This document shows positions 16,217 to 44,993 of a DNA stretch of 64,000 nt, in pieces (positions within the stretch are counted from its first letter, which is position 1; every line of letters begins with the position of its first letter). The stretch is from positions 1 through 64,000 of the IMG/VR virus record IMGVR_UViG_3300033148_007488; one strand, given 5' to 3'. Made by a program: the position numbers and the translations under genes. Below the pieces are notes generated by a model that was not told the DNA's origin, made no database searches, and worked only from the letters and a program-made list of their open reading frames with translations. This DNA comes from a virus (Duplodnaviria > Heunggongvirae > Uroviricota > Caudoviricetes).

Positions 16217-17491
16217 GTGGGAAAATGTGTCAATAGATATTTACGGAATTATGCACCACCGTTTGCCCATAATACCATATTATGCAACGATTATCTAAAA
16301 ACTAACTTACCCGACAAGGTTTTTATGAATTATCAAGCACCAGCCCCCGCAATGTCTTTGTTCTCAGCAAAAAGACCGGAAGAAAAGATCCACGTAAAAA
16401 AGAAAGAAGTTTACACTCTTGAGGATAGTTACAGCTTCCAAGGTATGCCTATTTCCATTGAAAATAAAGCTGGGAACTATCGCACAGGCAAAGACGGAGA
16501 CGGCCACGAATGGAAAACATTCATGTATTATGATTATGGATATATCAGAAATACAGAGGCTAAAGATGGTGAAGCCGTGGACGTTTATGTCAACAAAGAA
16601 GGCAGGAAATCAAATCTGGTTCATGTAATCCACCAAAAGAAAATTGAAGAAGTAAAGAAGTGGAAAAATGGAATCTGTCCTACCTGCAAGAAAAAGCATT
16701 TCAAATGCAAACACGCTTATGATGAAGATAAGGTTATGCTTGGATTTGATTACCGTGATGATGCAATCAAAGCTTATACCGCTCAATATGATTCTCCTCT
16801 TTTCTTGGGGCCTGTCTCTACCTACACAATTGAGGAATTCAAAGGACATCTCAAGAATTCGTGGGGGAAGAAACTTCCTTATAATAGGTTAGAGAAGGGA
16901 TGTGCAGTCAAAAAAGGGAATACTAGGTTTATAACAACTTCTGAATTGGGTACAAAGGTTGACGAAATGTACAAAGCCGATAAAAAAGAAGGCGAAACAA
17001 GAGATGAGTTTGTTAATAGATCCTTGAAAGAAATTGTAGCCAAACAACAGATGTCTGGGCTGGACAAATCCTATCTAGGACAACCAGGAGATCCAAGAGG
17101 ATCATTCGCATGGTTAAGAGAAAATCTGGATACCGTACCAGCCTCTTCAAAAATAAAAATAAAGAACAAAGTAACACTCGCTACTTACGAAGCACCAAGT
17201 TATTTAAAAACAACCATCGATGAAATATTAACCAGTAAAATGGAGAAAAGTATGGAACCTTATTCAGTCAAAAAACATTCTTGTACATCTGATGAAGATT
17301 ATATGTTGAATCGTGAACAAGGAGAAACCAAACAACAGTACGATTGGCGGATGAGGCTTGAATCCAGAACTTCAAAAGGAAGTCGGATTTGGAATGAAGG
17401 TGTTCATGTAGAAGCTGTAAATGATTATCCTCACGGAATGTACAAATCTACTAAAAAAATTATTGTTCCAACAGAAAAACAGGTGATATGA
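16217..17491 (+). CDS. Hypothetical protein whose N-terminal region resembles the inorganic-pyrophosphatase fold.
   Basis: 'ISIENKAGNYRTGKDGDGHEW..FMYYDYGYIRNTEAKDGEAVDVYV' aligns to E. coli PPase '[21 protein letters not shown]...[25 protein letters not shown]'. The downstream Asp residues are not conserved. The real start may be the internal ATG at 16325 (MNYQAP...). The stop overlaps the start of effector paralog A. Confidence 0.45.
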   Translation: MGKCVNRYLRNYAPPFAHNTILCNDYLKTNLPDKVFMNYQAPAPAMSLFSAKRPEEKIHVKKKEVYTLEDSYSFQGMPISIENKAGNYRTGKDGDGHEWKTFMYYDYGYIRNTEAKDGEAVDVYVNKEGRKSNLVHVIHQKKIEEVKKWKNGICPTCKKKHFKCKHAYDEDKVMLGFDYRDDAIKAYTAQYDSPLFLGPVSTYTIEEFKGHLKNSWGKKLPYNRLEKGCAVKKGNTRFITTSELGTKVDEMYKADKKEGETRDEFVNRSLKEIVAKQQMSGLDKSYLGQPGDPRGSFAWLRENLDTVPASSKIKIKNKVTLATYEAPSYLKTTIDEILTSKMEKSMEPYSVKKHSCTSDEDYMLNREQGETKQQYDWRMRLESRTSKGSRIWNEGVHVEAVNDYPHGMYKSTKKIIVPTEKQVI

Positions 17492-18432
17492 TGCAAGTTC
17501 CTAAATTACTTCTTTTCAGTCCTTTCCAAAAAGGTTTCGTCAGGGCTCATACCCGTAAAGGTAAAACCGTTGGCCCCTATTTCACGAAACGCCAGAAAAA
17601 AATAGGCACTGTCAAGCACACCAAAAAAACAAGAGTGGACTATTCCGAAAAGGATGCTCAACTCAAAATCAAACTCTTGGAAGAAAAAAAGAAACACCAT
17701 AATCTCCACGTCGAAGCGGCTAAAGAACTAAAAGAAAAAGTCGATTCTCACAAAGCAAAAGGCCATTCAACCTTCAAAATAGGCAACAAAGAACACGACA
17801 TCTCAAAGGTCGCCAAAGATCTGAATAACCATATTGAACACCACTCTAACGAGGTCAAATCACACGATAATCATATCTCAAAGATCAAGGATCGATATAA
17901 AACGGATAGGGAGTATTTTGCTAAGAAAAAAGTGGTAAAAACAATCGTAAAAAAAGAAAAACCGAATATGCACGTTGATTTATCGAATCTTCCAAAATTG
18001 GAAGGTGTTTCAGAAAAACAAGTTAGTTATGCTAATGATATAAGGGATGTTGTTTTAAACAATGATATTATAAAAGTTCTTGATGCGACAAAAGAAAATT
18101 ATGATAAATCAATAAAAGAACAAAGAGAACGGCTAAGAAGCAGAGGAAAATCAGATAGCAAATCGCTTTTAAGAAAAATTGAATATCAAAAAACTATTGA
18201 TAGATATAAAAATTTACTTGGAAGATTTAAGAAAGAAACAAGCGCATCCTTTTTTTTAGATCATCACCATTCTATGTTAAAAGTTTATAGACGGTCTACT
18301 ATGTCAGAAAGAATGCAGCAAATGAGTGATGATTGGATCAAGAGCGAAAATATAAAAGATGCCAAATCATACATTGAGTATGACTTGGCAATGAGGGACA
18401 ATCCGATTATGCCAATGTTAAGCAAGCTTTAA
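17488..18432 (+). CDS. Paralog A of a putative packaged/ejected protein family. It has the conserved N-terminal module plus a unique C-terminal domain.
   Basis: The N-terminus MMQVPKLLLFSPFQKGFVRAHTRKGKTVGPYFTKRQ.. is shared with ORFs 20136, 26853 and 29452. About 450 nt at the 5' end are roughly 90% identical to 26853..27300. Confidence 0.6.
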   Translation: MMQVPKLLLFSPFQKGFVRAHTRKGKTVGPYFTKRQKKIGTVKHTKKTRVDYSEKDAQLKIKLLEEKKKHHNLHVEAAKELKEKVDSHKAKGHSTFKIGNKEHDISKVAKDLNNHIEHHSNEVKSHDNHISKIKDRYKTDREYFAKKKVVKTIVKKEKPNMHVDLSNLPKLEGVSEKQVSYANDIRDVVLNNDIIKVLDATKENYDKSIKEQRERLRSRGKSDSKSLLRKIEYQKTIDRYKNLLGRFKKETSASFFLDHHHSMLKVYRRSTMSERMQQMSDDWIKSENIKDAKSYIEYDLAMRDNPIMPMLSKL

Positions 18433-19206: not shown

Positions 19207-19480
19207 CTCCAGTTTTGATGTTTTGTTAAATCTTTGTGACTCAACTTGATATTAGTAGATCATAGTAAATTTACTAATGCAAGCTTTATTTGAATTTATC
19301 CACGAGTTTTTTTAATAAAACATTCGCTGGATCATCTGGCTTCCTGTCTTCCCAGTTTCTAAGGAGTTTTGTCGCAAAAGCCTTGAACCCCATGTTCAAA
19401 CCAGCTTCCTGAATCATTTTATCCATTCGTTGGTTCTTGCGTTTTATTAGTTCTTTTTTTGGTATTGCTGCCATGTTTTC
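19207..19480. repeat. Copy 1 of a ~270-bp duplicated segment (small basic-protein gene plus a ~85-nt upstream-element module). A second full copy lies at 28331..28600 and a partial copy (element only) at 19981..20060.
   Basis: 'CTCCAGTT..AAATCTTTGTGACTCAACTT(G/A)A(T/C)ATTAGTAGATCATAGTAAATTTACT(A/T)ATGCAAG' plus the near-identical 61-62-aa ORF. On the - strand the element ends in GGAG followed by the ATG of the downstream gene. Confidence 0.55.
19286..19474 (-). CDS. Small basic protein (62 aa), paralog of 28409..28594.
   Basis: 'PKKELIKRKNQRMD.M..EAGL.MGFK.FATKLLRNWEDRKPDDPANVLLKKLVDKFK' is nearly identical in the two copies. Confidence 0.5.
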   Translation of the reverse strand: MAAIPKKELIKRKNQRMDKMIQEAGLNMGFKAFATKLLRNWEDRKPDDPANVLLKKLVDKFK

Positions 19481-20135: not shown

Positions 20136-21893
20136 ATGATTATTCCTTTATTTACTCTTTTCACCCCTTTTGAAAAAGGTTTCGTCCACGCTACAAGCTA
20201 CACAAACAAGCAAGGAAAGCCTGTTCACCGTAAGGCATACACAGACAAGCGTATTGCCAAAAAAGTAGTAGCAAAGGACAAAATACGCACTCCATGGACC
20301 AAAGATAAAACCTACCAAGAAGTCAAAGAAAAGCTTCACACCGAAAGAGACTCACTAAAAAAGAAACTCGAAGATGTCCGGGCTCACAAAGAAGAACTCC
20401 TTGAAGCAAAAAAGAAAGGATACACCCACACAAAAAGAGGAATCAAGGTTGATCATGAACACCACCTGAAAACCCACGAAAAGAATATCCATGAAAAACT
20501 GGAAACCACCAATCACAAAATCATGCTCCACGCAAGTCACAAAGAGTTGCTTAGAGAAAAAATTGAGGAGACAAGGGAGAAAGCGAGAGAAAAAAGAAAA
20601 GCCACTTCAAAAGAATTCAAAAATCAATCTGAATACATGGATTGGTACAGGAAGCAATCCACAAAAATAAAGGATGAACATAAGCTTAATAAAACTGATG
20701 GGAAGTTGATTGCATCGTGGGGTAAACCTTCAGAAAAGAAACCTCTTCCTAAAAAAGCTGTAGTGGTTAAGGATAAAAAGAAAGTCTCTGTTCCCCCTAA
20801 AGTTGCAAAGCAAAAAGAAAAAGATATTAAATTTTATACTAGACGGTTAGAAAAAGTTAAAGATCATTGGGGCGGTGATAACAAAAGCGGTTCTATGGGT
20901 GCTCAGGAAAAAGGCCCGTTAATGATAAAATATGCTCAAGCACAGCTTGACGCTGTTAAAAATGGAAAAAGTCCTTTTGAAGTAAAATTAAAAGAGGAAA
21001 AGATAGTAGTCCCCAAGGAAAAAGAGATTGATTATTCAAAAATCAAAGTAGGCAGAGAAGACTACAAAGAAAGAAAAGAAGCTAAAATTGACCGATTAAG
21101 AGATAGAGCAGAAAAAGCGCAAAGTGAATCTGATTCCAGATATAAATCAGCAAAGCAAACGGCTGATATGATACCATTCGGGCAACCTATTTTAGTTGGA
21201 CATCATTCTGAAGGAAGGGCAAGAAGAGATCAGCAAAAAATTCATGATAATATGGGCCGTTCAATCAAAGCACAGGAAAAAGCTGGAAGATTAAGTGATA
21301 GAGCAGACTCCGCAGAAAATAATCGTTCTATCTCCTCAGATGACCCAGAGGCGGCAGTTAAGCTAAAACAAAAGCTTGATAATTTAGAAAAACTTCAAGC
21401 AAAAATGAAAGAAATAAATGCAGCTTACAGGAAGTTTAAAAAGAATCCTGCCACACTTGATAAATCTGGCTTAGAAGAAAATCACAAGAAAACAATCAGA
21501 GATTTTGTCCCTCAATATTCATGGGAAAAAGGACCATTCCCATCATATAGAATGACAAACAACAACGCTACTATCCGCAACACTAAAAAGCGTTTAGATG
21601 GCATGGTAGCCAGTTCGGGTGCAGAAACAAAAACTCTTTATGAAAAAGGAGATATTAAGGTAGTCGATAATGTTGAAGATAATAGAATTCAAGTGCATTT
21701 CCCTGATAAGCCAGATGAAGCAACAAGAAAAGCTCTTAAATCGAATGGTTTTAAGTGGGCTCCTAGTGTTGGAGTATGGCAACGCAAGCGGTCTCCTAAC
21801 GCCAGATTCTCGACTAAGTATTTAATTAAAGAGTTGGAGTCTATGTCCAAGTCCGTAGCAATTCCTTTAATGCTATTATTCAAAGCTGTCTAA
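20136..21893 (+). CDS. Paralog B of the packaged/ejected family. It has a divergent N-terminal module (MIIPLFTLFTPFEKGFVHA..., K/H-rich helices) and a C-terminal DUF3560-like region.
   Basis: The LF.PF.KGFV motif is shared. The C-terminal 'IPFGQPILVGHHSEGRARRDQQKIHDN' resembles the DUF3560 family I recall from plasmids and phages (..iPfGQPilvGHHSe.r.rr...). Confidence 0.55.
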   Translation: MIIPLFTLFTPFEKGFVHATSYTNKQGKPVHRKAYTDKRIAKKVVAKDKIRTPWTKDKTYQEVKEKLHTERDSLKKKLEDVRAHKEELLEAKKKGYTHTKRGIKVDHEHHLKTHEKNIHEKLETTNHKIMLHASHKELLREKIEETREKAREKRKATSKEFKNQSEYMDWYRKQSTKIKDEHKLNKTDGKLIASWGKPSEKKPLPKKAVVVKDKKKVSVPPKVAKQKEKDIKFYTRRLEKVKDHWGGDNKSGSMGAQEKGPLMIKYAQAQLDAVKNGKSPFEVKLKEEKIVVPKEKEIDYSKIKVGREDYKERKEAKIDRLRDRAEKAQSESDSRYKSAKQTADMIPFGQPILVGHHSEGRARRDQQKIHDNMGRSIKAQEKAGRLSDRADSAENNRSISSDDPEAAVKLKQKLDNLEKLQAKMKEINAAYRKFKKNPATLDKSGLEENHKKTIRDFVPQYSWEKGPFPSYRMTNNNATIRNTKKRLDGMVASSGAETKTLYEKGDIKVVDNVEDNRIQVHFPDKPDEATRKALKSNGFKWAPSVGVWQRKRSPNARFSTKYLIKELESMSKSVAIPLMLLFKAV

Positions 21894-24086: not shown

Positions 24087-25118
24087 ATGCTCCAGTGTAT
24101 TTATTTGTTAAAAATGTGCGAAGAATGCAACCAAAAGCACCATTCTATATTTCAGTCTGGTGTTGAAACTGGCTTATCCCACTTTGACCAATTAGATACC
24201 TATTACCCTGGACTGAATCAATACGGTGTTGAATATGATAGCATGAAAAAAGCTGTTGTCATCAGTCCCCAAAAAGTAAGGTACGGTGAAGAGTCCTTTG
24301 ATAATTACATTCAGGAGCTTCTTGAAGAACTTAGTGATGGTTTAAGATTAGGAGATAAAAAAGAGCATATCAAAAATGTTCTACGAAAATTCAGTGACCG
24401 GAAATTTCAAGATAAGAACTGGTGGGGAAACCTGACTGAAAAGGAACTTGAAGAGCTTTTAGCAGGGATCAGGTCTTACTACCTTCCTCACACCGCAATG
24501 CTCAATTCTGGACTATCTGAGGCTTATATTTTCGGCAAATTCTCAAAACTTCTTACTGAAAGCATGTCTCTTAAGAAAGCCAGAGCGACAGTCAAAGGAT
24601 TAGAACTCACCACTTTTGATAAAGCAAGAATCGATGCCATTCAAAAGACCTCTCATATATTCTGGAACAAAGCGATCAGTAGAGAAGCAGATTCAGCAGC
24701 CATTAAATTACTCAAATACAACCGGGACGTAACAACTGAAATCCTCAAAGATCCAAATAGAAAGAATTGGCGGTCCTTGACCAGCGATATATACAACAGT
24801 ATAAATAAAGACAAATCAATTATTTTAAGGGATTTAGACAGAATTACGAGGACTGAAACGGCTTATTCTCAGAATTATGCGGTGTTGGCTTCGGGAAAAG
24901 ATACAGGGGCCAAATACTTTTTTGTTCAGGTCAGACCAACGGCCTGTAAGATTTGCAAAGGGATGTATCTTTACAAGAATGGGAAGCCAAGGCGGTTTTT
25001 AATTGAGGATGTTATGGATTTGCCAAGGGATCTTAATTGGGGTAAAAAACCTAATGATTTCAGTATGACAGCACCACCCAGTCACCCGTTTTGCTTTTGT
25101 AGAATTATGACAGAATAA
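24087..25118 (+). CDS. Phage head-morphogenesis protein of the Mu gpF / SPP1 gp7 (MuF) family.
   Basis: The C-terminal signature is 'RTETAYSQNYAV...APPSHPFCFCRI' (RTE....PP.HPnCRC). It lies in the effector block, away from the capsid module. Confidence 0.6.
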   Translation: MLQCIYLLKMCEECNQKHHSIFQSGVETGLSHFDQLDTYYPGLNQYGVEYDSMKKAVVISPQKVRYGEESFDNYIQELLEELSDGLRLGDKKEHIKNVLRKFSDRKFQDKNWWGNLTEKELEELLAGIRSYYLPHTAMLNSGLSEAYIFGKFSKLLTESMSLKKARATVKGLELTTFDKARIDAIQKTSHIFWNKAISREADSAAIKLLKYNRDVTTEILKDPNRKNWRSLTSDIYNSINKDKSIILRDLDRITRTETAYSQNYAVLASGKDTGAKYFFVQVRPTACKICKGMYLYKNGKPRRFLIEDVMDLPRDLNWGKKPNDFSMTAPPSHPFCFCRIMTE

Positions 25119-26593: not shown

Positions 26594-26856
26594 GTTTTAT
26601 ATGGGATATATGGAGTCTTTACCATTTTTGGGCATTGCTCCCTGTAGCAATAATGTTTTTCTTTGGTGCGTTTCTTTGGGTAAAAGTTGTTACTCCAAGT
26701 GATTATCATGAACGGAAGGCATGGAAACAACAGCGAGAAAATAAGAAATCAGGTCAAACAAAGTTCAGGCGTGTTGTTATGACCTCAATGATCTTAGTGT
26801 TCGGGTTGATGGCTTCAACAACATTCTGTTTTTCCTTCTATATGGCACTCAAATGA
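26590..26856 (+). CDS. Small two-TM membrane protein.
   Basis: ORF of 88 aa with two hydrophobic helices. It is coupled to its neighbours by ATGA overlaps. Confidence 0.5.
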   Translation: MSFIWDIWSLYHFWALLPVAIMFFFGAFLWVKVVTPSDYHERKAWKQQRENKKSGQTKFRRVVMTSMILVFGLMASTTFCFSFYMALK

Positions 26857-28148
26857 TACCCAGTATCCTTCTTTTCAGCCCCTTCCAGAAGGGATTTGTC
26901 AGGGCTCACACTCGCAAAGGGAAAACCGTTGGCCCCTATTTCACAAAACGTCAAAAGAAAATAGGCACCGTCAAGCACACCAAAAAAACCAGAGTCGATT
27001 ATTCAGAAAAGGATGCTCAACTCAAAATCAAACTCTTGGAAGAGAAAAAGAAACACCATAATCTCCATGTCGAAGCGGCTAAGGAACTCAAAGAGAAAGT
27101 CGATTCTCACAAAGCAAAAGGACATTCAACTTTTAAAATAGGCAATAAAGAACACGACATTTCCAAAGTGACCAAAGACCTGAATAATCACATTGAGCAC
27201 CATTCAAATGAAGTGAAATCACACGATAATCATATCTCAAAAATCAAGGATCGATATAAGACAGATAGGGAGTATTTTGGGAAGAAAAAGACACTTGTTA
27301 AAAAAGAATCCCCTATCTACAAAATAGAAAAAATAGGAGATTCAGACAGGTATAACTTTTATTATCCTGAAAAAGACGGGACACAAGGGTCCATGAAAGG
27401 AAGGCCGTTAGGACAAATTAGTATGTTTTTTAAAACTGGAAGGGCCACTGAAGCAATACCAGATAAGTTTGAAGGAAGAGAACATATGGGTGATTTAGTG
27501 CTAAAAAGTAAACCACGAAATGACCAGAATCCTACTCTTAGATTAGAAAAGAAAGGGCGAAAGTACAATATTTATTACCCTACACATGCAGGAAAACACG
27601 GTATAGTAGAGGGGCAAACTTTAGACCAAGCAAAAGATTTCTTCAAAAGATGGGCTAAAGGACCAGACGAATTTGAGGGGAAACATCTTCTTTTAAAGGA
27701 ACCCCAAAAAAGAGCTAAACCAAAACCAAAGAAAGTAGAACAACAGATAGATAGGGTTGATTATGAATCATTTTCAAAAGATGGGTGGGTACATAGAAAA
27801 ACAGCTTTAAAATTCACTCTCACAGAATCAGTAACGAAAACTCATTTCAAAGAATTGATGAGGCTTTCTCATAACTATAATTCAAGAGAAAAAACAGGGT
27901 ACATCAATGAAGACGACAAGGAAAAATTTCTTGCGCTTACCAATAAAATGAAAAGCTCAAGCCTCAAAAGAGCTAAAACATCACACAAAAGATCTTTAGA
28001 AAAGTTTCAAGAGATGAAACAGCAAAGTCGTTCAGGAGAGAAATACACTTTTGAAGACTACGTGGAGGATTTTATGGATCAGCACGTAGCCTTGATGTCA
28101 GATAAAGACAGGAGTGAAGCTTATAAAAACTATATAAGAGACACTTAA
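26853..28148 (+). CDS. Paralog C of the packaged/ejected family. It has the N-terminal module plus a C-terminal domain with an internal ~40-aa repeat.
   Basis: The first ~150 aa are nearly identical to paralog A. The C-terminal part repeats 'YN.YYP...G..G...G..L.QA..FFK....A..PD.FEG' twice. Confidence 0.6.
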   Translation: MIPSILLFSPFQKGFVRAHTRKGKTVGPYFTKRQKKIGTVKHTKKTRVDYSEKDAQLKIKLLEEKKKHHNLHVEAAKELKEKVDSHKAKGHSTFKIGNKEHDISKVTKDLNNHIEHHSNEVKSHDNHISKIKDRYKTDREYFGKKKTLVKKESPIYKIEKIGDSDRYNFYYPEKDGTQGSMKGRPLGQISMFFKTGRATEAIPDKFEGREHMGDLVLKSKPRNDQNPTLRLEKKGRKYNIYYPTHAGKHGIVEGQTLDQAKDFFKRWAKGPDEFEGKHLLLKEPQKRAKPKPKKVEQQIDRVDYESFSKDGWVHRKTALKFTLTESVTKTHFKELMRLSHNYNSREKTGYINEDDKEKFLALTNKMKSSSLKRAKTSHKRSLEKFQEMKQQSRSGEKYTFEDYVEDFMDQHVALMSDKDRSEAYKNYIRDT

Positions 28149-28330: not shown

Positions 28331-28600
28331 CTCCAGTTAGTGGTTTCGTTAAATCTTTGTGACTCAACTTAACATTAGTAGATCATAGTAAATTTACTTA
28401 TGCAAGTTTTATTTGAATTTATCCACGAGTTTTTTTAATAAAACATTCGCTGGATCATCTGGCTTCCTGTCTTCCCAATTTCTCAGGAGCTTTGTAGCAA
28501 AAGATTTGAATCCCATGTCAAGACCTGCTTCTTTGACCATGATATCCATTCTTTGATTTTTACGCTTTATAAGTTCTTTTTTAGGTATTGGCATTGTTTC
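28331..28600. repeat. Copy 2 of the ~270-bp duplicated segment.
   Basis: See 19207..19480. Confidence 0.55.
28409..28594 (-). CDS. Small basic protein (61 aa), paralog of 19286..19474.
   Basis: It has the near-identical sequence and sits inside a ~270-bp duplicated segment. Confidence 0.5.
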   Translation of the reverse strand: MPIPKKELIKRKNQRMDIMVKEAGLDMGFKSFATKLLRNWEDRKPDDPANVLLKKLVDKFK

Positions 28601-29345: not shown

Positions 29346-29375
29346 GTAAACATTATGTCAAACAAAATGTTTACA
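29346..29375. promoter_or_regulatory. Second copy of the 30-bp palindromic element (putative operator), between divergent genes 28669..29322(-) and 29452..31359(+).
   Basis: Identical to 44901..44930. Confidence 0.5.
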
Positions 29376-29451
29376 AATAATCATCTGTTTGAAATAAATT
29401 TTTAAATATGTAAAAGATAAGTATAATATATTAACTCATACTGAAATTAAA

Positions 29452-31359
29452 ATGATACCCAGCCTACTTCTCTTCAGTCCATTCCAGAAAGGATATGTTC
29501 AGGCCCACACACGTAAAGGAAAAAGAGTAGGTCCTTACTTCACCAAAAGACAGCCCGGACAAGTCCAAGAAAAGCATACCAGAGACCGCTTTATTGACCA
29601 CGACAAAGCCAGTGCATCCAAAGCCCATGAAGAACTTGAATCACTTAAAGCCAAGCACCAAGAATTACTCAATGCAGCCAAGAAGCATCATGATGAAATA
29701 AAAAGCAAAGGACCAGTTGAAGGCGAAAGGGTAGACCACAAAACAAAACTTTCTCATCTCAAAGCAGAAATCAAGAATCAAAAGACTCACATAGACAACC
29801 ATTCCAGAAAACAAAAACTGATCAAGGACCGCTACAAAATAAGCAGCAAGCAGATTACCCAAAGAAAATCAAAGTCTGATCTGGAAAGAAAAATAGCTTC
29901 CCACTCAGACGGACAGAAAAAAACTATTCGTGCAATTCACGAAGCCCATAAAAAAGGTGAATCAAAACTTGAGCCTGGCAGAATTCTTAAAGGCAAAGAT
30001 AAAGACCATATTTATCTTGAAACAAAGCACAAGGACACAGGAGAAGCGCACCATATCGCCATTCATAAAGATGGTTCAGTTAAGGACCCCAATATTCTCC
30101 ATGGTGGAAAATTCGATTCAAAAACACTCAAAGAAGATGCCAAGCCAAAGAAGATTGTAGTTAAGTCTGAACCTAAAAAAGGAGTGACGGTTAAGAAACA
30201 AGAGCCATTTAAAAAAGTTGAGAAATCTGAGGCTAAGAAGATCGGTGTTAAGAAACAAGAGGAGAAAAAACAGACAAGATCGCAGGCCATGAAAGGCAAT
30301 AAGAATGCGTGGAAGGGAGGACCGAAGGATGAACCGAAAAAAGTCAAAGTTAAAACAAAAGAGGGATTGACAGCAAAAACTGGAACTTTAACATCAGGTG
30401 AAAAATCATCTTTGAGTTGGTATTCAGGAGATGGATTCCATAAATTAAATGAATATTTAAGAAAAGATAATGCATCTAAAAATAAGAGTCTTGATAAATT
30501 TACAGATAGTTTAAATAGTGCAATTAGTAAAAGTGAGATCACTAAAGATACAACGCTATATAGAGGCATAAACAATGATGAGTTAACAAAAAAATTCCAA
30601 TCAGTTAAAACTGGAAATAAGATTCCTGTTAGTTCGTTTCAAAGTACATCTTCTAGCGAACGAGCTTTATTTGCTCATGCAGGACTTGTAGGTGTTGCAT
30701 TGAAAATTAATGTTAAAAAAGGAACAAACATAGCTGATCTTGCAGGCAGCGGCACAGCTATGGACGCTAAAGAACAAGAAATCCTGTTGCCAAATAAAGG
30801 GCATTATGTGGTTAAAAGTGTAAGCAAACCAGAAAAAGGTGAATTAGGAAGAACTATAGTTGAAGTAGATTATATTCAAGATGAACAGGAAAAGAATGAA
30901 GATAAAAAAACTTCTAAAAAAGTTGAGAAATCTGAGGCTAAAAAGATTGTTGTTAAAAAATTAGATCAGGAGAAAAAAGAAACCAGGCTACCTGAAATAA
31001 AAAAAGGCCATTATATAAAGCGCAAGATATCGGGGCTCGGAGACAGACCTTCACCTTGGGAATATGTTTCATCTACTGTTAAAAACGGATTCATGGTTGA
31101 GGGTAGACCTTTTACGGTTCCGTTTTCAGATATTATAAGCGTTAGAACAGGAAACCCAGCACTTGGCCGTGGTGACGTGATTTATGATGATGGAAGCATC
31201 CAATCTAGGGTATTAAAGAAATCCATACCCACAACATCCAAACAATTAGAAAACTTATTGCAAGAAGAAAGACTGTTCAAATCCCTCAAATCTCCAGAGG
31301 AAATAAAACTCCTCAAGGAGAAGAGGAAACGAAGAAAGAAACGTAAAAATAAAAGGTAG
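29452..31359 (+). CDS. Paralog D of the packaged/ejected family. It carries the N-terminal module and a C-terminal mono-ADP-ribosyltransferase domain (R-S-E class, C3/Vip2/Alt-like).
   Basis: The N-terminus is MIPSLLLFSPFQKGYVQAHTRKGKRVGPYFTKRQ. The ART motifs, in order, are 'SLSWYSGDGFHKLNEYLRK', 'TLYRG' (Arg codon 30562-30564), 'FQSTSSSER' (STS at 30643-30651) and 'AKEQEILLP' (EQE at 30772-30780). The ART domain is flanked by 45-bp direct repeats encoding KKVEKSEAKKI.VKK. Confidence 0.7.
   Translation: MIPSLLLFSPFQKGYVQAHTRKGKRVGPYFTKRQPGQVQEKHTRDRFIDHDKASASKAHEELESLKAKHQELLNAAKKHHDEIKSKGPVEGERVDHKTKLSHLKAEIKNQKTHIDNHSRKQKLIKDRYKISSKQITQRKSKSDLERKIASHSDGQKKTIRAIHEAHKKGESKLEPGRILKGKDKDHIYLETKHKDTGEAHHIAIHKDGSVKDPNILHGGKFDSKTLKEDAKPKKIVVKSEPKKGVTVKKQEPFKKVEKSEAKKIGVKKQEEKKQTRSQAMKGNKNAWKGGPKDEPKKVKVKTKEGLTAKTGTLTSGEKSSLSWYSGDGFHKLNEYLRKDNASKNKSLDKFTDSLNSAISKSEITKDTTLYRGINNDELTKKFQSVKTGNKIPVSSFQSTSSSERALFAHAGLVGVALKINVKKGTNIADLAGSGTAMDAKEQEILLPNKGHYVVKSVSKPEKGELGRTIVEVDYIQDEQEKNEDKKTSKKVEKSEAKKIVVKKLDQEKKETRLPEIKKGHYIKRKISGLGDRPSPWEYVSSTVKNGFMVEGRPFTVPFSDIISVRTGNPALGRGDVIYDDGSIQSRVLKKSIPTTSKQLENLLQEERLFKSLKSPEEIKLLKEKRKRRKKRKNKR
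30205..30280 (+). repeat. Left copy of a ~45-bp direct repeat (AAAAAAGTTGAGAAATCTGAGGCTAAGAAGATCGGTGTTAAGAAA) flanking the ART domain. The right copy lies at 30919..30963.
   Basis: The protein repeat is KKVEKSEAKKIGVKK / KKVEKSEAKKIVVKK. Confidence 0.5.
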
Positions 31360-31360
31360 T

Positions 31361-31708
31361 ATGACAAAAGAAGATATTGCAAAAATAGCTCATGAAATAA
31401 ATAGGGCATATTGTAAAAGCATAAAAGACCATTCTCAAAAAATATGGAAATGTGCGCCTGAATGGCAAAGGAAAAGTGCTATAACTGGAGTGGAATTCCA
31501 TATTGACAACCCAGGGGCTGGAGTTGACGATTCTCACAAAAGTTGGCTGAAAGAGAAATATGATGATGGCTGGAAATATGGTCCGGTAAAAGACTCGTCA
31601 AAAAAAGAACATCCTTGCTGTGTCCCCTATGAAGAATTACCTGTTGAACAACAGGCAAAAGATTATTTATTCAGGGAAATAGTTCACCAACTTAAAACAT
31701 ATTTATAA
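31361..31708 (+). CDS. Small protein with a RyR-like (ryanodine-receptor domain family) motif, immediately downstream of the ART gene.
   Basis: '...DGWKYGPVKDSSKKEHPCCVPYEELPVEQQAKDYLF' fits the RyR-domain pattern I recall (GW.yG...d...K.hP.LvPy.eLpe.eK..dr). Its start lies 2 nt after the ART stop. Confidence 0.45.
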   Translation: MTKEDIAKIAHEINRAYCKSIKDHSQKIWKCAPEWQRKSAITGVEFHIDNPGAGVDDSHKSWLKEKYDDGWKYGPVKDSSKKEHPCCVPYEELPVEQQAKDYLFREIVHQLKTYL

Positions 31709-31719
31709 TTGAGGAAACA

Positions 31720-32139
31720 ATGGCAAAAATACCAAACAATTTTAAATTAAAAATGGCAGAGGCTTTTTTCCAAGCAGCCAAGACTTACAGAATGTCTCTC
31801 CACACAAGTTCTTTGATCCCAGATGAGGACACTCATAAAAACTTTTCTGATCTGACAGATGAAGTTTCAGGAACCGGATATGTAGCTGGTGGTGATGACA
31901 TTGGAGATCCAGAACTTACTCAAGATGATGAACTCAACCAGATAGTAGTCGATTGGGACGATTACACCTTCTCAAATTTGACAGTAGCAGAAATCAGATA
32001 TGCAGCCATTTATGAAGATACTGGCAATGGAGGAACCAGCACCATCATTGCAATTTTAGATTTTGGTCAAAACGAAGCATCTTCAGCAGCCGATTTCATT
32101 GTAAAAATCAATGCCCACGGGGTCTTAAATGTCACTTAG
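31720..32139 (+). CDS. Hypothetical protein.
   Basis: ORF of 139 aa with SD GAGGAAACAATG. Confidence 0.5.
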   Translation: MAKIPNNFKLKMAEAFFQAAKTYRMSLHTSSLIPDEDTHKNFSDLTDEVSGTGYVAGGDDIGDPELTQDDELNQIVVDWDDYTFSNLTVAEIRYAAIYEDTGNGGTSTIIAILDFGQNEASSAADFIVKINAHGVLNVT

Positions 32140-33787
32140 TTATGGCACTGTTTCATTAACAGGTAGAGATGTTTTAGCACAAAATTCAATAGTGGCCACT
32201 CTTGACCACGGAATAGCCCATATTGACGCTTATGATGTAAGAGTCATACCTGAGCATGTCCTTGACCATGTAGAGGCTCATTTTGACGCTTATGACGTTA
32301 AAGGTGTCGTTGCGGAACTGGCCATTACTTTACTAAAGCCTGAATTCTGTCGTTTCGAGGAGAATTTTAAAACCCTGAAAGCAAGAATAAAGCTCAAGAA
32401 CCAATTTGATCCAAACAGGGAAAATCTTTTCACGGCAAAAATAATTACTGGGATAACCGATCCAAGTAACCCCGAGTCTAAATTAGAGTTTCCACTGACA
32501 ACATGGACCCAAAAAATTGGAGACAATACCACAAAACTTATCAAGGAGTATGATCTTAATTTAGTCACTTTCGAACTTGAAAACTGCGATATTGATTTAC
32601 CTTTGAATATTGGGAAACACACCTTGGAAGTCAGAATAAATGATCAGGTTGAAACGGCTGAGTTTGATGTTGTGCCAGTGACAGTGCAAAGTGTGAAGAA
32701 CCAGTACATGCTTGGCGTTGATATGGTAGGAAACTCTGAGTTAGTATTGCAGCAAGATTTGAGAAAAATTACTGGGGTTGAAGTATTGCATATCAGTAAA
32801 GAAACGGCAGTCGGTTCTAAAGAATTCACATGGAACGCAAAAGACCAGACTTTGCAGTGGGATTTTGGAGCACCAGTCGTAATTTCAGATGACCATATGG
32901 AGTATGAAATTTTCGACCATATGATGGAACCATCCCTAGCAGGAGGAGATTATATAAAGGTAAACATTGAGGACATTGATAATCTTCCATCAATTAATAA
33001 GACTGAAGTAGTCCTTGTAGATGTTAAAAAGTACAAAAACGAAGAGTATCAATATTGGATTAACACAGGTCTCAGAGTACTGACAGAACTAATGATCATG
33101 ACAGATATCGAACCCACACTCTACAGCTCAGACAAAAGTCTTGGCTATAAATATCTGGACCCTGTTACAAACCAACCTAAATCACAGTCAGAATCAAGTA
33201 ATATTACTTTCGAGTTTGCAACTAATATGCTCCAATGTGTCCAAAGATTATGGGTACACCAGAGGGGAATCAGTGACGTTGATCTGAATGTTAACAAGCA
33301 CGTGGAACTAAGCACAGATGGGGCCGTTACAGTAATTGGTCATCCTTACGGGCGTGGATCAGGAAATACGGCTATATGGTCGGCTGGAATATGGGATAGA
33401 ACTCTCTATGCTAAGAACGGGCATCGAGATTATAATAAGGTTAAGAATTTTTGGAATGCTACTGTTGTCGCAGGGATTCCAGATAGTGCCAGTGAATTAA
33501 GACTCCTTTCCTTAGATATCATTTCCAAGCTGGCTGCGGTCGATTTGTACGTTCAAAGCGGTTTAGGCAGAGGAAGTGGGATTGCAAGTAGATCGTTTTC
33601 AGTGGGTGGAATATCCAGTAGTTTCAATAGCGTAGAAAGCGCAGAAAATGCGCTGATGAGTTCCAGCATACTCGAAATTCAGAGAAAATTGGGTGTCGGG
33701 CGTGCAACTAAAGATGAACAAAAGACAGGATTAGTTCAATCTTTAAAAACAAAAATATTAGGTGGGGCTCTTTCTTTTAAATTTTAA
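32129..33787 (+). CDS. Hypothetical large protein with an N-terminal tandem His/Asp repeat (HIDAYDVRVIPEHVLDHVEAHFDAYDVKGV).
   Basis: ORF of 552 aa. It is beta-rich and may be virion-associated, but that is unproven. Confidence 0.5.
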   Translation: MSLSYGTVSLTGRDVLAQNSIVATLDHGIAHIDAYDVRVIPEHVLDHVEAHFDAYDVKGVVAELAITLLKPEFCRFEENFKTLKARIKLKNQFDPNRENLFTAKIITGITDPSNPESKLEFPLTTWTQKIGDNTTKLIKEYDLNLVTFELENCDIDLPLNIGKHTLEVRINDQVETAEFDVVPVTVQSVKNQYMLGVDMVGNSELVLQQDLRKITGVEVLHISKETAVGSKEFTWNAKDQTLQWDFGAPVVISDDHMEYEIFDHMMEPSLAGGDYIKVNIEDIDNLPSINKTEVVLVDVKKYKNEEYQYWINTGLRVLTELMIMTDIEPTLYSSDKSLGYKYLDPVTNQPKSQSESSNITFEFATNMLQCVQRLWVHQRGISDVDLNVNKHVELSTDGAVTVIGHPYGRGSGNTAIWSAGIWDRTLYAKNGHRDYNKVKNFWNATVVAGIPDSASELRLLSLDIISKLAAVDLYVQSGLGRGSGIASRSFSVGGISSSFNSVESAENALMSSSILEIQRKLGVGRATKDEQKTGLVQSLKTKILGGALSFKF

Positions 33788-34860: not shown

Positions 34861-36159
34861 CTATAATTTTTTATATTTTTCCATTATCGCCCGTTGTCGA
34901 ATTGCCTGTTCTTTTGTTGGTGCAAGTCCCATATATTTACAGGTGTGATCATTCTTTAGAATTGTTAAAGCAAAGCGTTTCCATGATGCTACGTCACCAT
35001 TATTACAGCTTAACATGTCCAAGTGGTCTGGAAACTTTCTTATTCTAATTCTAGTTAAATTTTTCCTGCCATGATGAGTAAGCCCATTCTCAAAAAACTC
35101 TATTTTATGTTCTTTTAATTCATTGATTATTTTTTCTGGTAGGCCACGCCCTGTCCTGCCCCAAACTTTGAACGATTGGACAAAGCGCATCTTAAAATTT
35201 TCAGCGACTTCCTTTGGCAGAGTGTCTAAAAGAAATTTAGTGAATGACTTCCAAGTATGACCATCAGGAAGTTTAAATGTTCTATAACTCAATTGTTTTC
35301 CATAAGTTGCAATAAAATTTGCACCTTGCACCCTGGCACATAATTTAGCCCATACATGAGGATCAATCACCCTATACAATCCAAGACTTGACTTTGACTC
35401 ACTCATAAATGGTGAAGCAACTCTCATGCTACCCACTGGAATGCCAGCTTTATAGAAAATGTCGTAAAGTTCGTTGTATTCCCATTCAAACTTTGCATTT
35501 GCCACCCAAATATCGTCAGTTTTCCAATCATATATAGGGTAGCAATTATAGACTGTTTTTGTATTTTTCTTAGTCCACATTTGACCTTTGAGAATTGTTT
35601 TTCTTGTATTCATGATAGCCCTGAACCTGTTTAGGCTTTCAGAAGTTCTAATCCCTATAAGGCATGCTGTTTGTTCTCCTTGCCCGTACCAATCACCAAA
35701 TTTATCCCAAAATTCATCGTAGTTCATGTCTTCATAAAAGAAATCAAATTTATGATTGTTAATGTTTACAATATAGTCATCTTTAGGCATTGGCTTAATC
35801 CATCTTTCTTTATCTCTTTCTCCCCAACATTGCCATTCAACAGCATAAGCACTTACCGTACATGGCAGTGTAATAGGTAGGCAACACCAATAAACATCAA
35901 GTAAGTCTAAATTGGCTCTGACAATAGAGTGCATGAAAGCAAGGGAATATTCATAATTTGCTTCATTATCTAATATCATGACACCTATCTTTTTAGTGAT
36001 ATTGTTTTTTCGCATGTAATCTATGAAAAGGTTGAGCATCACTCCACTGTCTTTTCCACCTGAAAAAGAGATATAAATTTTAGGAAAATTATCAAATATA
36101 AATTTTATTCTTTCTTGGCTTGCATCATAAACATTAATTTCTGTATTATATCTTCGCAT
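34861..36159 (-). CDS. PAPS-reductase/PP-loop ATP pyrophosphatase superfamily protein with a C-terminal extension (IbrA/DndC-like architecture).
   Basis: The PP-loop is 'IYISFSGGKDSGVML'. It is 432 aa, in an operon with a ParB-like gene, as in the ibrAB pairs described in E. coli and in phages. Confidence 0.6.
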   Translation of the reverse strand: MRRYNTEINVYDASQERIKFIFDNFPKIYISFSGGKDSGVMLNLFIDYMRKNNITKKIGVMILDNEANYEYSLAFMHSIVRANLDLLDVYWCCLPITLPCTVSAYAVEWQCWGERDKERWIKPMPKDDYIVNINNHKFDFFYEDMNYDEFWDKFGDWYGQGEQTACLIGIRTSESLNRFRAIMNTRKTILKGQMWTKKNTKTVYNCYPIYDWKTDDIWVANAKFEWEYNELYDIFYKAGIPVGSMRVASPFMSESKSSLGLYRVIDPHVWAKLCARVQGANFIATYGKQLSYRTFKLPDGHTWKSFTKFLLDTLPKEVAENFKMRFVQSFKVWGRTGRGLPEKIINELKEHKIEFFENGLTHHGRKNLTRIRIRKFPDHLDMLSCNNGDVASWKRFALTILKNDHTCKYMGLAPTKEQAIRQRAIMEKYKKL

Positions 36160-36394: not shown

Positions 36395-36755
36395 GTATTT
36401 CTTTCCAGATAGTGTAATATTTTAATGCCATTGTATCCGCTTCATTCTGTTCTTTTATAGATAGGAGCTTAAAGCCTCCTCTTGCTTCTGATGGCAAACC
36501 TTTAGCATATGCGGCAGAAGCCTGTCCTAGCCATGCTATTTTGTTTAGGCTTTTATTACTCAAAAAATGTTCACACGAGTAAGTCCATTCATTGATAACA
36601 CATTCTAAAGCTGTTTCGAATTGCCATAGGCAAGATAGGAAAATCTTATATTCTTGTTGTGCATATTCTTTAGTCATTTTTAGATCAGCACAACTATCGT
36701 AAAATCCATCTTTATAACATTCCCATTTATGCCAAGGGTGCCAGATCTTTTTCAT
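36327..36755 (-). CDS. Hypothetical Cys/Trp-rich protein.
   Basis: ORF of 142 aa. The start is coupled to the upstream ParB-like stop. Confidence 0.45.
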   Translation of the reverse strand: MKKIWHPWHKWECYKDGFYDSCADLKMTKEYAQQEYKIFLSCLWQFETALECVINEWTYSCEHFLSNKSLNKIAWLGQASAAYAKGLPSEARGGFKLLSIKEQNEADTMALKYYTIWKEIHDNKSKKISKHLEKKRLQRGYS

Positions 36756-37555
36756 TCTGCTTGTTCTAAAAAGTCTTCTCTATTTTCGTAATCATCTTCT
36801 GTGTCAGCTTCCCAACTGTCAGAAAAATCTTTATTGTCAAACAATGCAGCTACACCAGTGATTTGCTTAAGCCTTAAAAGCTCATCTATGCTCATTCCAA
36901 TATGCTTGCAGATCCACCTATCCCCTTTGCCCATCTCAACTAATTCAGCAACGATTGTACTCATTAATTCAACATTATGAGTACCCCTAGCTCTATTGTG
37001 CCGAATAGTTGAAGCAATTCTATCACCTTTGCCCTCTCTCTCTTGATTAATATTAACAATTGGCAGATAACCAAGAATTCTTTTTTTTACTCCATCATTC
37101 TCTTTCCCAACTCTATTACGGTGAAATCCATCAACGACCTCTATATCTTTAGGTTTAGCCCATGCTACAATTGGTTGAGTATATCCGTCTTCAAGTATAG
37201 ACTGACTAAGTAACTCCATTTCAGGAGGGGCTACGGCATTGGGATTATAATCATTAGCATGAACATATTCTGATTTTTCCCATACTACACAATCTACAGG
37301 TTCATTTTTGAAAGGGCTGATTGAGTGCAATTCTTTTTTGACAGTATTTAAAGACTCAATTTTATCGTCCAATGGCATTGATTCTATAAGTTCACTAATA
37401 TTAGATATTAATTCTTTAAGATATCCGTTTTTTTCGGTTTTTTCCATTCTTTCTATTTTTAAAAAAGTATTTATTATTTTACTCATTATTAATCCTATTT
37501 TGCAGTTAACAAGGTTGCGGTATCCAATATCTTCTTTTCTTGATTGTCGAGCCAT
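36752..37555 (-). CDS. ParB-like nuclease domain protein (IbrB-like).
   Basis: 'YTQPIVAWAKPKDIEVVDGFHRNRV' fits the ParB/Srx pattern G.Piv......y.vvDG.HR..a. It is the first gene of the minus-strand operon that ends at 33801. Confidence 0.55.
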   Translation of the reverse strand: MARQSRKEDIGYRNLVNCKIGLIMSKIINTFLKIERMEKTEKNGYLKELISNISELIESMPLDDKIESLNTVKKELHSISPFKNEPVDCVVWEKSEYVHANDYNPNAVAPPEMELLSQSILEDGYTQPIVAWAKPKDIEVVDGFHRNRVGKENDGVKKRILGYLPIVNINQEREGKGDRIASTIRHNRARGTHNVELMSTIVAELVEMGKGDRWICKHIGMSIDELLRLKQITGVAALFDNKDFSDSWEADTEDDYENREDFLEQAE

Positions 37556-37845
37556 TTTGCGAAGGTCTCTGCGGTATCGAAAGGGTATTCAGAGTTCCAT
37601 TCAAATTGTTTAACAATTATTTTAAAACTCCCAAATTTGTAAGTGATGATAAATGTTTTTACATCATATTCTGAATTAACAATGTGTGAATTAAAAAGAG
37701 TATCATAACTCAGATAATGCAAAATTTCACAGATTGTATTTGTTTTCTCTCCTCTTACATCTTTTAGGCAATCTTCAATTGAATACCCATTAGCGCACTG
37801 GAAGGTGCTTTTATATGCGAATCTTATCTTTTCTTCGAGTGTCAT
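37495..37845 (-). CDS. Hypothetical protein.
   Basis: ORF of 116 aa. Confidence 0.45.
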   Translation of the reverse strand: MTLEEKIRFAYKSTFQCANGYSIEDCLKDVRGEKTNTICEILHYLSYDTLFNSHIVNSEYDVKTFIITYKFGSFKIIVKQFEWNSEYPFDTAETFAKWLDNQEKKILDTATLLTAK

Positions 37846-38588
37846 TTTGATTCAATTTCCTGATAGTTATTTTTTATTCTATCCCAGACTCTAGTCTGAC
37901 CTTTTCCGGTGATTAAGGTTCTCTTACTGATGCGGTCTTTTTCGTTTTTGTCTTGGAATGAATATTCATCCACTTCAAACCATTTATAGGTTAGATATTG
38001 TTGGTAAGGTAGATTGTTTTGCAGAAGTAGCCTTGCGTCTCTCATATCACGATAAAGCCTGTTTCTGCCTGTCTGATATCCTTTTTTACATAGAATCTTA
38101 GCAAACTCTTCTATTGTGACTGTACCTTCTGAATATCTGATTGATTCTGCGAATTTTATTTTAGGCTGGTCTTTTTCAATTTTTATATTTAGCCTTCTGT
38201 TCACTTCAAGTACGGCCAACTTTTTAAGCTCTGTGTCTCTGAGCATGTCTATAAGTTCTAACCTTGTTAATTCTTTTGGTGGCTCTTTGATCAGTTTCTT
38301 TTCGCATTCAATAAAATACTTTCTGGCCTGCCTGCCTTTATCGTTCCTCTCAACCATTGACAATTCCTTTGCCATGTCAAGAGTTAGATGGTAATCAATA
38401 GCGGTTCCCCCGTTTTGGGGAATCGATTTTAAGACCATATAATCAATATTTTCTTCAAAATCATATTGTTCGATTCTTCCTTTTACCCATGTTGAAAAAT
38501 CTTTACCAATTTCTAAAAAGGAATGCAGGTCTCTTGCGTTAACTGTTTTAATGCCTTCTGAACTTGTTTCAATTTTTATCAATTCCAT
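37842..38588 (-). CDS. Phage antirepressor (AntA-like N-terminal domain plus KilA-C/ORF6C C-terminal domain).
   Basis: The N-terminal part is 'NARDLHSFLEIGKDFSTWVKGRIEQYDFEENIDY' (AntA pattern ardLh..L.....fs.W.k.ri..y.f.e..Df). The C-terminal part is 'IEEFAKILCKKGYQTGRNRLYRDMRDARLL' (KilAC). Confidence 0.6.
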   Translation of the reverse strand: MELIKIETSSEGIKTVNARDLHSFLEIGKDFSTWVKGRIEQYDFEENIDYMVLKSIPQNGGTAIDYHLTLDMAKELSMVERNDKGRQARKYFIECEKKLIKEPPKELTRLELIDMLRDTELKKLAVLEVNRRLNIKIEKDQPKIKFAESIRYSEGTVTIEEFAKILCKKGYQTGRNRLYRDMRDARLLLQNNLPYQQYLTYKWFEVDEYSFQDKNEKDRISKRTLITGKGQTRVWDRIKNNYQEIESK

Positions 38589-40862: not shown

Positions 40863-41690
40863 CTATCCTGTAGTGTTGATTTTATAAGGAACAAGATCAG
40901 TGTTTTTCAACCTATTTGATATATACACTTGACCTTTTCCGGTAACAGTTATTTTAGTGCATAGTTTATTGATCACTTCGCCTGTCTCATCCTTTATGAC
41001 TTCTTTGCTAAATTCATCATATTTAAACCATCCTGAATTGACCGCACTTTGATATGGAATGTTTTTCCGATTACTAATGAATATCAGTTTTAGTTCTCTG
41101 AGTTTTTTAAATAGGTTATTTTGCCCGATCATATAACCATTCTTACTAAGGATTTTTGAAAATTCTCCAATAGAGATCGCATCATTTGATTCTTGAATTT
41201 TACCAGCGAATTCAACTAAAGGTTTGTCTGCCTCAATTTTCTCTTGAAGCTTTTCTTTTTCTTCAACCTCATAGAGCAAAGCTTTCAACGCTTCTCTGTA
41301 GTTTTGGGGCAGTTTTAATTCTTCTTGAGATACCTTTTTCCCAAACCAATAGCCGTGGAGAACATGAAAACATTCTTCTTGATACTCTTCAACCTTCTTT
41401 CTTGTTTTATTATTCTTTATGTTGTTCGGGTTGACAGTAAAAAGCCATCCATTCAATTTCCTGATAGGAATACACCCCATATTTCTTAATCTTCCATCAC
41501 CGGCAACTATGGCGATATCCCCATAGTCGAACTTTTTACTATTAGACTTTAGCCTTGAAGACTGAGAGGACCAATCCAAACCCATATTTTCAACAACTGA
41601 CTTCATGGCAACATAAATTCCTTTTTCGGTCCTCACCGTTTGAATTTGGTCACCATGAAAACCAATTAGTACTTGTTCTTTTAATGACAT
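40863..41690 (-). CDS. Second antirepressor-like protein (N-terminal Ant/Bro-type domain plus C-terminal KilA-C).
   Basis: The C-terminal 'ISIGEFSKILSKNGYMIGQNNLFKKLRELKLIF' parallels the KilAC region of 37842..38588. The N-terminal 'LIGFHGDQIQTVRTEKGIYVAMKSVVENMGLDW' is antirepressor-N-like. Confidence 0.5.
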   Translation of the reverse strand: MSLKEQVLIGFHGDQIQTVRTEKGIYVAMKSVVENMGLDWSSQSSRLKSNSKKFDYGDIAIVAGDGRLRNMGCIPIRKLNGWLFTVNPNNIKNNKTRKKVEEYQEECFHVLHGYWFGKKVSQEELKLPQNYREALKALLYEVEEKEKLQEKIEADKPLVEFAGKIQESNDAISIGEFSKILSKNGYMIGQNNLFKKLRELKLIFISNRKNIPYQSAVNSGWFKYDEFSKEVIKDETGEVINKLCTKITVTGKGQVYISNRLKNTDLVPYKINTTG

Positions 41691-44973: not shown

Positions 44974-44993
44974 TATTGAAAAAAGGAGATGCT

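Follow-up and report, generated by a model that had tools for sequence, protein, structure and literature searches.

The gene examined here, termed paralog D or simply D, occupies positions 29452..31359 of a 64,000-nt stretch of DNA (the window; positions 1 to 64,000 of IMG/VR record IMGVR_UViG_3300033148_007488), which is a fragment of an uncultured contractile-tailed phage with 36.8% G+C. Its open reading frame (ORF), uninterrupted on the plus strand for 635 amino acids (aa; isoelectric point, pI, ~10), almost certainly encodes a genuine R-S-E ADP-ribosyltransferase (ART) domain, whose NAD-binding/catalytic triad is predicted to be intact. This domain is joined to an N-terminal module, here called the carrier, that recurs in three further genes of the window, and D is probably one of a number of interchangeable proteins used for host manipulation early in infection. 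An identical protein (P0001) was found on a 79 kb Joint Genome Institute (JGI) metagenome contig.

The ADP-ribosyltransferase domain

An earlier reading of the same DNA (the original prediction) had placed a mono-ADP-ribosyltransferase of the C3/Vip2/iota/T4-Alt type at 30400-30860, fused to a shared N-terminal module, and had proposed that the gene family encodes injected effectors. Translation of ORF 29452..31359 confirmed all four of its listed motifs at their predicted codons. The Pfam search that it had suggested as a check returned PF03496 (ADPrib_exo_Tox) over residues 312-471 of D at E 9.2e-17 (61.4 bits, gathering cutoff 23.4, hidden Markov model positions 15-190 of 196). The location of the domain was thus correctly predicted, and its limits proved slightly wider (30385-30876). 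When D was searched against PDB sequences with phmmer, Vip2 was matched at E 4.6e-7, and the two proteins aligned in register at the helix motif and at Y-R, S-T-S and E-x-E.

ART sequences were aligned from six proteins: D, P0003, P0018 and, as a divergent sister domain, P0005, P0008 and P0009. Residues Y370, R371, G372, S398, E441 and E443 of D were unchanged in all six. A profile built from this alignment matched Vip2 (3e-13) and Vis (2.5e-12) in the PDB, and also CDTa, BECa, iota Ia, Certhrax, HopU1, C3larvin and SpvB. A homologue search with the ART domain alone gave no new relatives. The sister domain of P0005, P0008 and P0009 lies at the position of D residues 310-460, behind the same carrier; it is a second, divergent R-S-E ART-like domain (VYRG...SAS...EGE) and was missed by Pfam.

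In the full-length AlphaFold run the carrier was well modelled and the ART region fell below a predicted local distance difference test score (pLDDT) of 50, because few of the aligned homologues carry an R-S-E ART payload. The ART was therefore modelled separately (AlphaFold2) from the clean six-sequence alignment, giving a pLDDT of 74.6 and a predicted template modelling score (pTM) of 0.72. Foldseek comparison of this model to the PDB returned 109 matches at E<=1e-3; the best 50 were all C2/C3-type ART toxins (query-normalized template modelling score, TMq, 0.61-0.67), led by Vis, Vip2, Plx2A, Certhrax and C3. The original prediction had named placement in a non-ART fold as grounds for withdrawing the call, and it was the ART fold that was recovered. 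Together the Pfam profile, the PDB matches, the predicted structure and the invariance of the motifs make the enzymatic assignment secure, and the claim of an R-S-E ART domain is borne out.

An E-x-E motif in the ADP-ribosylating turn-turn (ARTT) loop marks an arginine acceptor, and Q-x-E, as in C3, an asparagine acceptor. From E441-Q-E443, arginine specificity is predicted for D, as in Vip2, iota toxin, Vis and T4 Alt.

The carrier module and its family

All-vs-all BLASTP of the ORFs in the window identified four that share an N-terminal region of ~140 aa (paralogs A to D; E 1e-19 to 2e-5), so the predicted paralog family and the fusion of the ART to its shared module both held. The four proteins are strongly basic (pI 9.8-10, 23% K+R), in which they resemble DNA-associated internal proteins, and a DNA-level repeat family is present at all four gene starts. 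The carrier has a signature of IPxxLLF followed by FxKGYVxAHTRKGK (longer consensus FxKGFVxxHTRKGKxVxxYFxKR), and IPxxLLF opens nearly all members of the family. Residues 50-230 of D were confidently predicted by AlphaFold (pLDDT 75-95) to fold into a long helical hairpin followed by another helix and a sheet of three strands. No relative of the module was found in Pfam, PDB sequences, PDB structures or BFVD structures; the best match, colicin E3 at E 0.13, was dismissed as a generic helical-hairpin resemblance.

A word-indexed search with the N-module profile gave two extra proteins, and the family was found by exhaustive HMMER search of 1.84 billion cluster representatives, in which 58 proteins had the carrier module at E<=1e-3. 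It was mostly N-terminal, and internal in about ten proteins of 900-2000 aa. The partner domains found by Pfam scan of 36 carrier proteins were InPase (8), LPD1 (5), DUF3560 (2), SNF2/ResIII helicase (2), RadC (2), DdrB-ParB, ART-PolyVal, LPD5 and, weakly, Peptidase_Mx (P0014). Several domains may share one carrier, as with InPase and LPD1 in related locus L006 and RadC and DdrB-ParB in P0023. As judged by these profile and structure searches, the carrier module appears to be previously undescribed, rare and without a known fold relative.

In weaker profile matches the ~35-aa signature occurs two or three times, each internal occurrence following an apparent former N-terminus; this suggests repeated fusion and fission of signature-led units. 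IPxxLLF also closes paralog B (window 21860-21893; VAIPLMLLFKAV immediately before the stop codon, IPLMLLFKAV being the final ~10 residues) and likewise stands at the C-terminus of five metagenomic family proteins (P0033, P0042, P0047, P0050 and P0064). A frameshifted continuation of the N-module past the paralog B stop was considered and rejected, as none exists in any frame.

The window also shows gene fission of a polyvalent protein: the InPase-domain protein and paralog A are separate genes here, and in related loci L001, L004, L006 and L010 InPase and carrier are fused in one ORF of 1074-1832 aa. The carriers of A and C are 94-96% identical because of a recent segmental duplication. The duplicated segments (17509-17808/26868-27167 and 19220-19467/28343-28590) lie ~9.1-9.4 kb apart at 88-90% DNA identity and take in, besides the two carriers, a small minus-strand ORF (19286..19474 and 28409..28594; 91.5% aa identity). 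An element of ~100 nt, possibly a repeated promoter or leader, is present in three copies (19192-19291, 19966-20065 and 28315-28414; 74% identity) over the 5' ends and upstream regions of small minus-strand ORFs.

Two further parts of D lie downstream of the ART. Residues 507-582 are 63% identical to the C-terminus of the L001 InPase polyvalent protein and are missing from the L001 ART orthologue; they had no Pfam match and were modelled with low confidence in the full-length AlphaFold run. From this distribution the segment appears to be a further shuffled module. The polybasic tail is also found in P0003, P0010-13, P0015, P0038 and P0039, whatever the payload.

Exchange of payloads at the position of D

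Seven related loci were compared with the window (L001, L004, L005, L006, L008, L009 and L010). Their conserved gene order begins with orthologues of the genes at 4493, 6001 and 6886, an InPase-and-carrier polyvalent protein, the MuF-like gene and three small genes. It continues with an optional C-like carrier, a D-like carrier, an orthologue of the gene at 32129..33787 (47-57% identity), SLT, head genes, the major capsid protein and the sheath. At the position of D (the D slot) the carriers are 45-87% identical among loci while the payload differs. An R-S-E ART (PF03496) is found in the window and L001, ART-PolyVal (H-Y-D type, PF18760) in L004 and L010, DdrB-ParB (PF18763) in L005 and L008, and a RadC-like JAB domain in L006.

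The closest relative, L008, is 81% identical in DNA to window 29356-30236 and 31715-32865, and the intervening 30344-31714 is replaced. The left breakpoint falls inside a linker motif, (E)EKKxxRSxAMxGNKNA[WFY]KGGPK, which precedes the payload domains in 12 family proteins. In addition, the ART cassette is flanked by a direct repeat of ~75 nt (30210-30278/30915-30986; 84% identity, with 0 such pairs expected by chance) that encodes KKVEKSEAKKI(G/V)VKK..EKK.TR. The linker breakpoint and the flanking repeats suggest that cassettes are exchanged through recombination within the DNA that encodes the linker.

In the comparison with L008, the RyR-domain ORF that follows D falls within the exchanged segment along with the payload; in L008 the DdrB-ParB payload is followed by an ORF of its own (56 aa). 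The RyR-domain ORF is absent from L001, L004, L005, L006 and L010, and in L001 none lies within 20 kb of the ART orthologue.

Genomic context and possible link to the virion

Coordinates of the features are collected in Table 1. Megablast of window 28-33 kb against 50,697 phage records gave no match; with no DNA match among deposited phages, the lineage is known from metagenomes only. The MuF-like gene is 47-61% identical to its orthologues across the related loci; in L001, L004, L006 and L010 it is syntenic, at 55-60% identity. In searches for related loci, the MuF-like protein gave no (prophage) relative among genomes and the carrier protein gave nothing; an alignment of MuF-like orthologues used as query found one IMG/VR contig. 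In the compact locus L010 the polyvalent gene, the MuF-like gene, the D slot, SLT, head genes, the major capsid protein gene and the sheath gene are contiguous and all co-oriented.

Table 1. Positions of paralog D, its parts and neighbouring genes in the window
Feature	Position	Strand	Basis or remarks
InPase-domain protein	16217..17491	+	PF18823 E 9e-30; overlaps start of paralog A by ATGA
Paralog A: carrier N-module	17488..18432	+	N-module 94-96% identical to that of C; downstream part without family assignment
Paralog B: carrier N-module and DUF3560	20136..21893	+	PF12083 E 1.9e-35
MuF-like minor head protein, inside effector cluster	24087..25118	+	phrog_115/4728 minor head/head morphogenesis, E 6e-8; 4.3 kb upstream of D
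Paralog C: carrier N-module, payload without family assignment	26853..28148	+	BLASTP to paralogs
Paralog D (from N- to C-terminus: carrier, Lys-rich linker closing with RSxAMxGNKNAxKGGP, ART, small C-terminal domain, polybasic tail)	29452..31359	+	
Carrier N-terminal signature, aa 1-50, MIPSLLLF-SPFQKGYVQAHTRKGKRVGPYFTKR	29452..29601	+	best-conserved stretch in 4 paralogs and 14-sequence alignment
Carrier body, aa 51-230: helical hairpin H52-86/H96-148, helix 153-167, three-stranded sheet 173-205	29602..30141	+	AlphaFold pLDDT 75-95; 57-87% identity among orthologous carriers
Linker repeat copy 1 (KKVEKSEAKKIGVKKQEEKKQTR), 5' of ART cassette	30210..30278	+	direct repeat with copy 2
Linker motif EKKQTRSQAMKGNKNAWKGGPKDEP, aa 273-297, directly upstream of payload	30268..30342	+	common to 12 family proteins
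Predicted R-S-E mono-ADP-ribosyltransferase domain, aa 312-475	30385..30876	+	PF03496, PDB profile matches, AlphaFold2/Foldseek
Helix motif SLSWYSGDGFHKLNEYLRK, aa 320-338	30409-30465	+	in register with Vip2
Arg371, predicted catalytic (Y-R-G), within TLYRG aa 368-372	codon 30562..30564	+	aligned to Vip2 YR
S398-T-S400 motif	30643..30651	+	aligned to Vip2 STS
E441-Q-E443 (ExE, ARTT loop)	30772..30780	+	aligned to Vip2 E-K-E
Linker repeat copy 2 (KKVEKSEAKKIVVKKLDQEKKETR), 3' of ART cassette	30915..30986	+	direct repeat with copy 1
Small C-terminal domain, aa 507-582	30970..31197	+	homology to C-terminus of L001 InPase protein
Polybasic C-terminal tail LKEKRKRRKKRKNKR	31312..31356	+	family comparison
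RyR-domain ORF, 115 aa	31361..31708	+	PF02026 E 4e-11; begins 2 nt past D stop
PAPS-reductase-like gene	34861..36159	-	
ParB-like gene	36752..37555	-	
Ant-like antirepressors (two)	37842..38588, 40863..41690	-	C-terminal halves paralogous
Transglycosylase	44976..45803		
Tail protein, 1001 aa	46526..49531	-	
Prohead-protease match, weak	50607..51371		
Major head protein (major capsid protein)	52212..54152		
Tail sheath	54967..56694		

A trio of 472, 310 and 632 aa that matches the window genes at 4493, 6001 and 6886 stands immediately upstream of the InPase and carrier genes in L009. In the window the three genes are co-oriented and encode 505, 293 and 618 aa (4493-8742, the 618-aa gene being 6886..8742); they are conserved in L006 and L009, and by size and position the trio may include terminase and portal. 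None of the three had a match in Pfam, PHROGs, PDB sequences or cultured phages. In the search for terminase and portal, the products of 4493, 6886, 9154 and 32129 gave no match in Pfam, PHROG, PDB or phage databases.

The nearest ART outside the orthologous group, in the metagenomic protein P0018, is 48% identical to that of D and stands behind a head-morphogenesis N-terminal domain (phrog_2468, E 3e-21). Pfam and BLAST gave no support for this N-terminus as MuF, the PHROG head-morphogenesis match being the only one. The best cultured-phage matches fall in head proteins, among them gp04 of Raoultella phage RP180, which is annotated 'head morphogenesis', combines Phage_Mu_F with PF03496 (31% identical to D) and adjoins the portal gene. 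A 2022 survey found Alt/VIP2 ARTs to be enriched in myoviruses, often fused to MuF or among head genes (PMC9503650), and phage-type polyvalent proteins have been inferred by their describers to be packaged in the virion and injected with the DNA (PMC5512222).

Comparison with known systems

The ART of D is predicted to have the same fold and the same motif order (helix Y-x-x-x-F-x-x-L-N-x-x-L-R, Y-R-G, S-T-S, E-x-E) as Vip2, Vis, iota-Ia and CDTa, at an identity of only 20-24%. Unlike the C2-type toxins, D has no duplicated inactive N-terminal ART/adaptor domain, no binary-toxin B component and no secretion signal; it is a phage gene product, joined to a carrier specific to phages.

T4 Alt, the functional model of an injected ART (PMC5512222), is similar in general plan, being a contractile-tailed-phage protein of ~650-680 aa whose R-S-E ART lies towards the C-terminal half. 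Its N-terminal region is unrelated to that of D, and alt lies between gene 54 and gene 30, in a neighbourhood of baseplate and tail tube genes; the neighbours of D are carrier paralogs on one side and a conserved 552-aa gene on the other, with the SLT and head genes farther downstream. The PHROG 'RNA polymerase ADP-ribosylase' match of D (E 3e-4) spans 86 aa only. The original class assignment stood for its Vip2/iota part, and the likeness to T4 Alt was weak though in register (hhalign E 0.014). By sequence and predicted structure the nearer relatives of the ART of D appear to be Vip2/Vis and phage MuF-ART fusions, with T4 Alt more distant; as judged by sequence comparison, D is no demonstrable orthologue of Alt.

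MuF-ART fusions and MuF toxins (the E. faecalis EFV toxin, RP180 gp04 and P0018) belong to the same ART clade as D. In MuF toxins a virion-associated N-terminal carrier is followed by a variable C-terminal payload and then by a small ORF (PMC5576092); D likewise has a conserved N-terminal carrier, a variable C-terminal payload and a small ORF downstream. However, D had no PF04233 and no head-morphogenesis PHROG match, and the MuF-like protein is a separate ORF. D is not a MuF toxin, because the MuF domain is missing from its polypeptide, and several carriers are present per genome here, unlike in MuF toxins.

The partners of the carrier elsewhere are the repertoire of the polyvalent proteins (PMC5512222), including multi-domain proteins of 1000-2000 aa, and in both cases the genes lie among virion genes. 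In the phage studied here the system is split over four genes, most of them with a single payload and every one with a copy of the carrier. The polyvalent proteins have H-Y-D ARTs (Tox-ART-HYD2/ART-PolyVal) and an MPTase hub (PMC5512222), whereas the ART of D is of the R-S-E class; the Pfam scan found no MPTase or other peptidase domain in D, and the carrier matched no Pfam LPD family. The R-S-E ART of D fills exactly the slot in which close relatives hold ART-PolyVal or DdrB-ParB.

Proposed role and alternative explanations

The reading we favour, with moderate confidence, is that D is a modular, carrier-borne ART effector that enters the host with the phage genome. The carrier, perhaps aided by the polybasic tail, would direct D to the capsid interior, the packaged DNA or the portal, and D would enter the cell together with the genome. 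The Vip2/Vis-type ART would then use NAD+ to mono-ADP-ribosylate arginines of host proteins; components of transcription, translation or defence would be the expected targets, modified in favour of infection. Sibling carriers would deliver InPase, DUF3560 and unassigned payloads in parallel, as a 'split' polyvalent protein. The fusion partners of the carrier, the head-morphogenesis carrier of the nearest outside ART and the position of the genes within the morphogenesis supercluster, beside a MuF-like gene, strengthen circumstantially the earlier proposal that the family consists of injected effectors.

Several results weigh against this. The carrier could not be matched to MuF, to the capsid-targeting sequence of T4, to DarA or to any viral structure, whether solved or predicted. 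The context of a 'packaging module' rests on gene order and size, because portal and terminase were not found by homology, and the paralog cluster is interrupted by minus-strand genes. The ART model is of moderate confidence (pLDDT 74.6 from 6 input sequences), the match to T4 Alt is marginal (hhalign E 0.014 at a probability of 3%, with helix-R-STS in register; BLASTP not significant), and promoter and terminator scans around D were uninformative, nothing scoring above shuffled sequences.

Delivery with the genome would be unnecessary if D were an unpackaged intracellular ART used in host takeover, like T4 ModA/ModB, with the N-module serving oligomerisation, nucleic-acid binding or localisation. 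T4 R-S-E ARTs can indeed work without packaging (PMC5512222), DNA or RNA binding and coiled-coil formation are both conceivable for the basic helical hairpin, and the genes that interrupt the cluster on the minus strand are moron-like. We nevertheless regard this as rather unlikely, since the partners of the carrier are polyvalent-protein domains, some of them (InPase, DdrB-ParB) reported only there, the nearest ART relative is borne on a head-morphogenesis carrier, and the cluster is co-oriented and syntenic with the MuF-like and head genes. D might instead be a growth-inhibiting MuF-style polymorphic toxin directed at competing or superinfected bacteria, with the RyR-domain ORF as immunity partner. 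The combination of a carrier with a variable C-terminal payload fits that logic, as does the position of the 115-aa RyR ORF, 2 nt past the D stop and swapped along with the payload relative to L008; the two Ant-like antirepressors hint at a temperate lifestyle. Yet the L001 ART orthologue is without an RyR gene, neither an integrase nor a repressor was recognised in the window, the search of genomes gave no prophage relative for the MuF-like gene, and other payloads of the carrier (InPase, RadC, DUF3560) are not classic toxins. RyR domains are also not known to inhibit ARTs, and a polymorphic toxin with an RyR-domain immunity partner is considered quite improbable.

A separate question, orthogonal to the route of delivery, is the substrate. 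The ART could act on DNA or RNA bases, a small molecule or NAD-capped RNA ('RNAylation'), or could hydrolyse NAD+ against NAD-dependent defence. R-S-E ARTs do include nucleic-acid modifiers and the RNAylating T4 ModB (PMC9503650), the crystal structure of Vis, the top structural match, contains the small guanidino compound agmatine, and the strongly basic flanks would favour proximity to nucleic acid. Such a substrate appears highly unlikely, given that the nearest relatives (Vip2, iota, CDTa, BECa and Vis) are arginine-specific modifiers of proteins or guanidino compounds and that the E-x-E ARTT motif is an arginine signature.

Within the favoured account of D as an effector that enters with the genome, a more specific and only tentative proposal is that the shared module is a new capsid-targeting/ejection carrier, a functional counterpart of MuF or the T4 capsid-targeting sequence. 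Each payload of this 'split polyvalent' system would have its own carrier, and the GNKNAxKGGP linker would be the site at which phages trade cassettes by recombination, in some cases along with a small partner gene. C-terminal IPxxLLF sequences might then mark sites of docking or proteolytic processing, through which separate genes and fused polyproteins would be functionally equivalent.

The ART itself is unsurprising, because ARTs of the Alt/VIP2 clade are known from many myoviruses, often as fusions to MuF. What is new is a distinct, rare and structurally unassigned carrier module in what would be the role that MuF fills elsewhere; the sharing of one slot by R-S-E ARTs with the H-Y-D ARTs, DdrB-ParB and RadC of polyvalent proteins; and an apparent exchange mechanism exposed by conserved linker breakpoints and by direct repeats around the cassette. 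Should the carrier prove to signal packaging or ejection, it would serve as a portable tag by which any chosen protein could be loaded into capsids, and as a handle by which injected anti-defence effectors of uncultured phages could be catalogued.

Minor features near D

An antisense ORF of 170 aa (30063..30575) was rejected as a shadow of the conserved plus-strand coding, its matches in relatives mirroring those of D. A common promoter motif upstream of paralogs B and D was likewise rejected, its count being at chance level. The minus-strand block of the window (33801-44202 and 46526-49531) is missing from L010. Near its 5' end, the conserved 552-aa gene downstream of D contains a tandem repeat with 60-nt spacing (32201-32243/32261-32303), encoding LDHGIAHIDAYDV and LDHVEAHFDAYDV.

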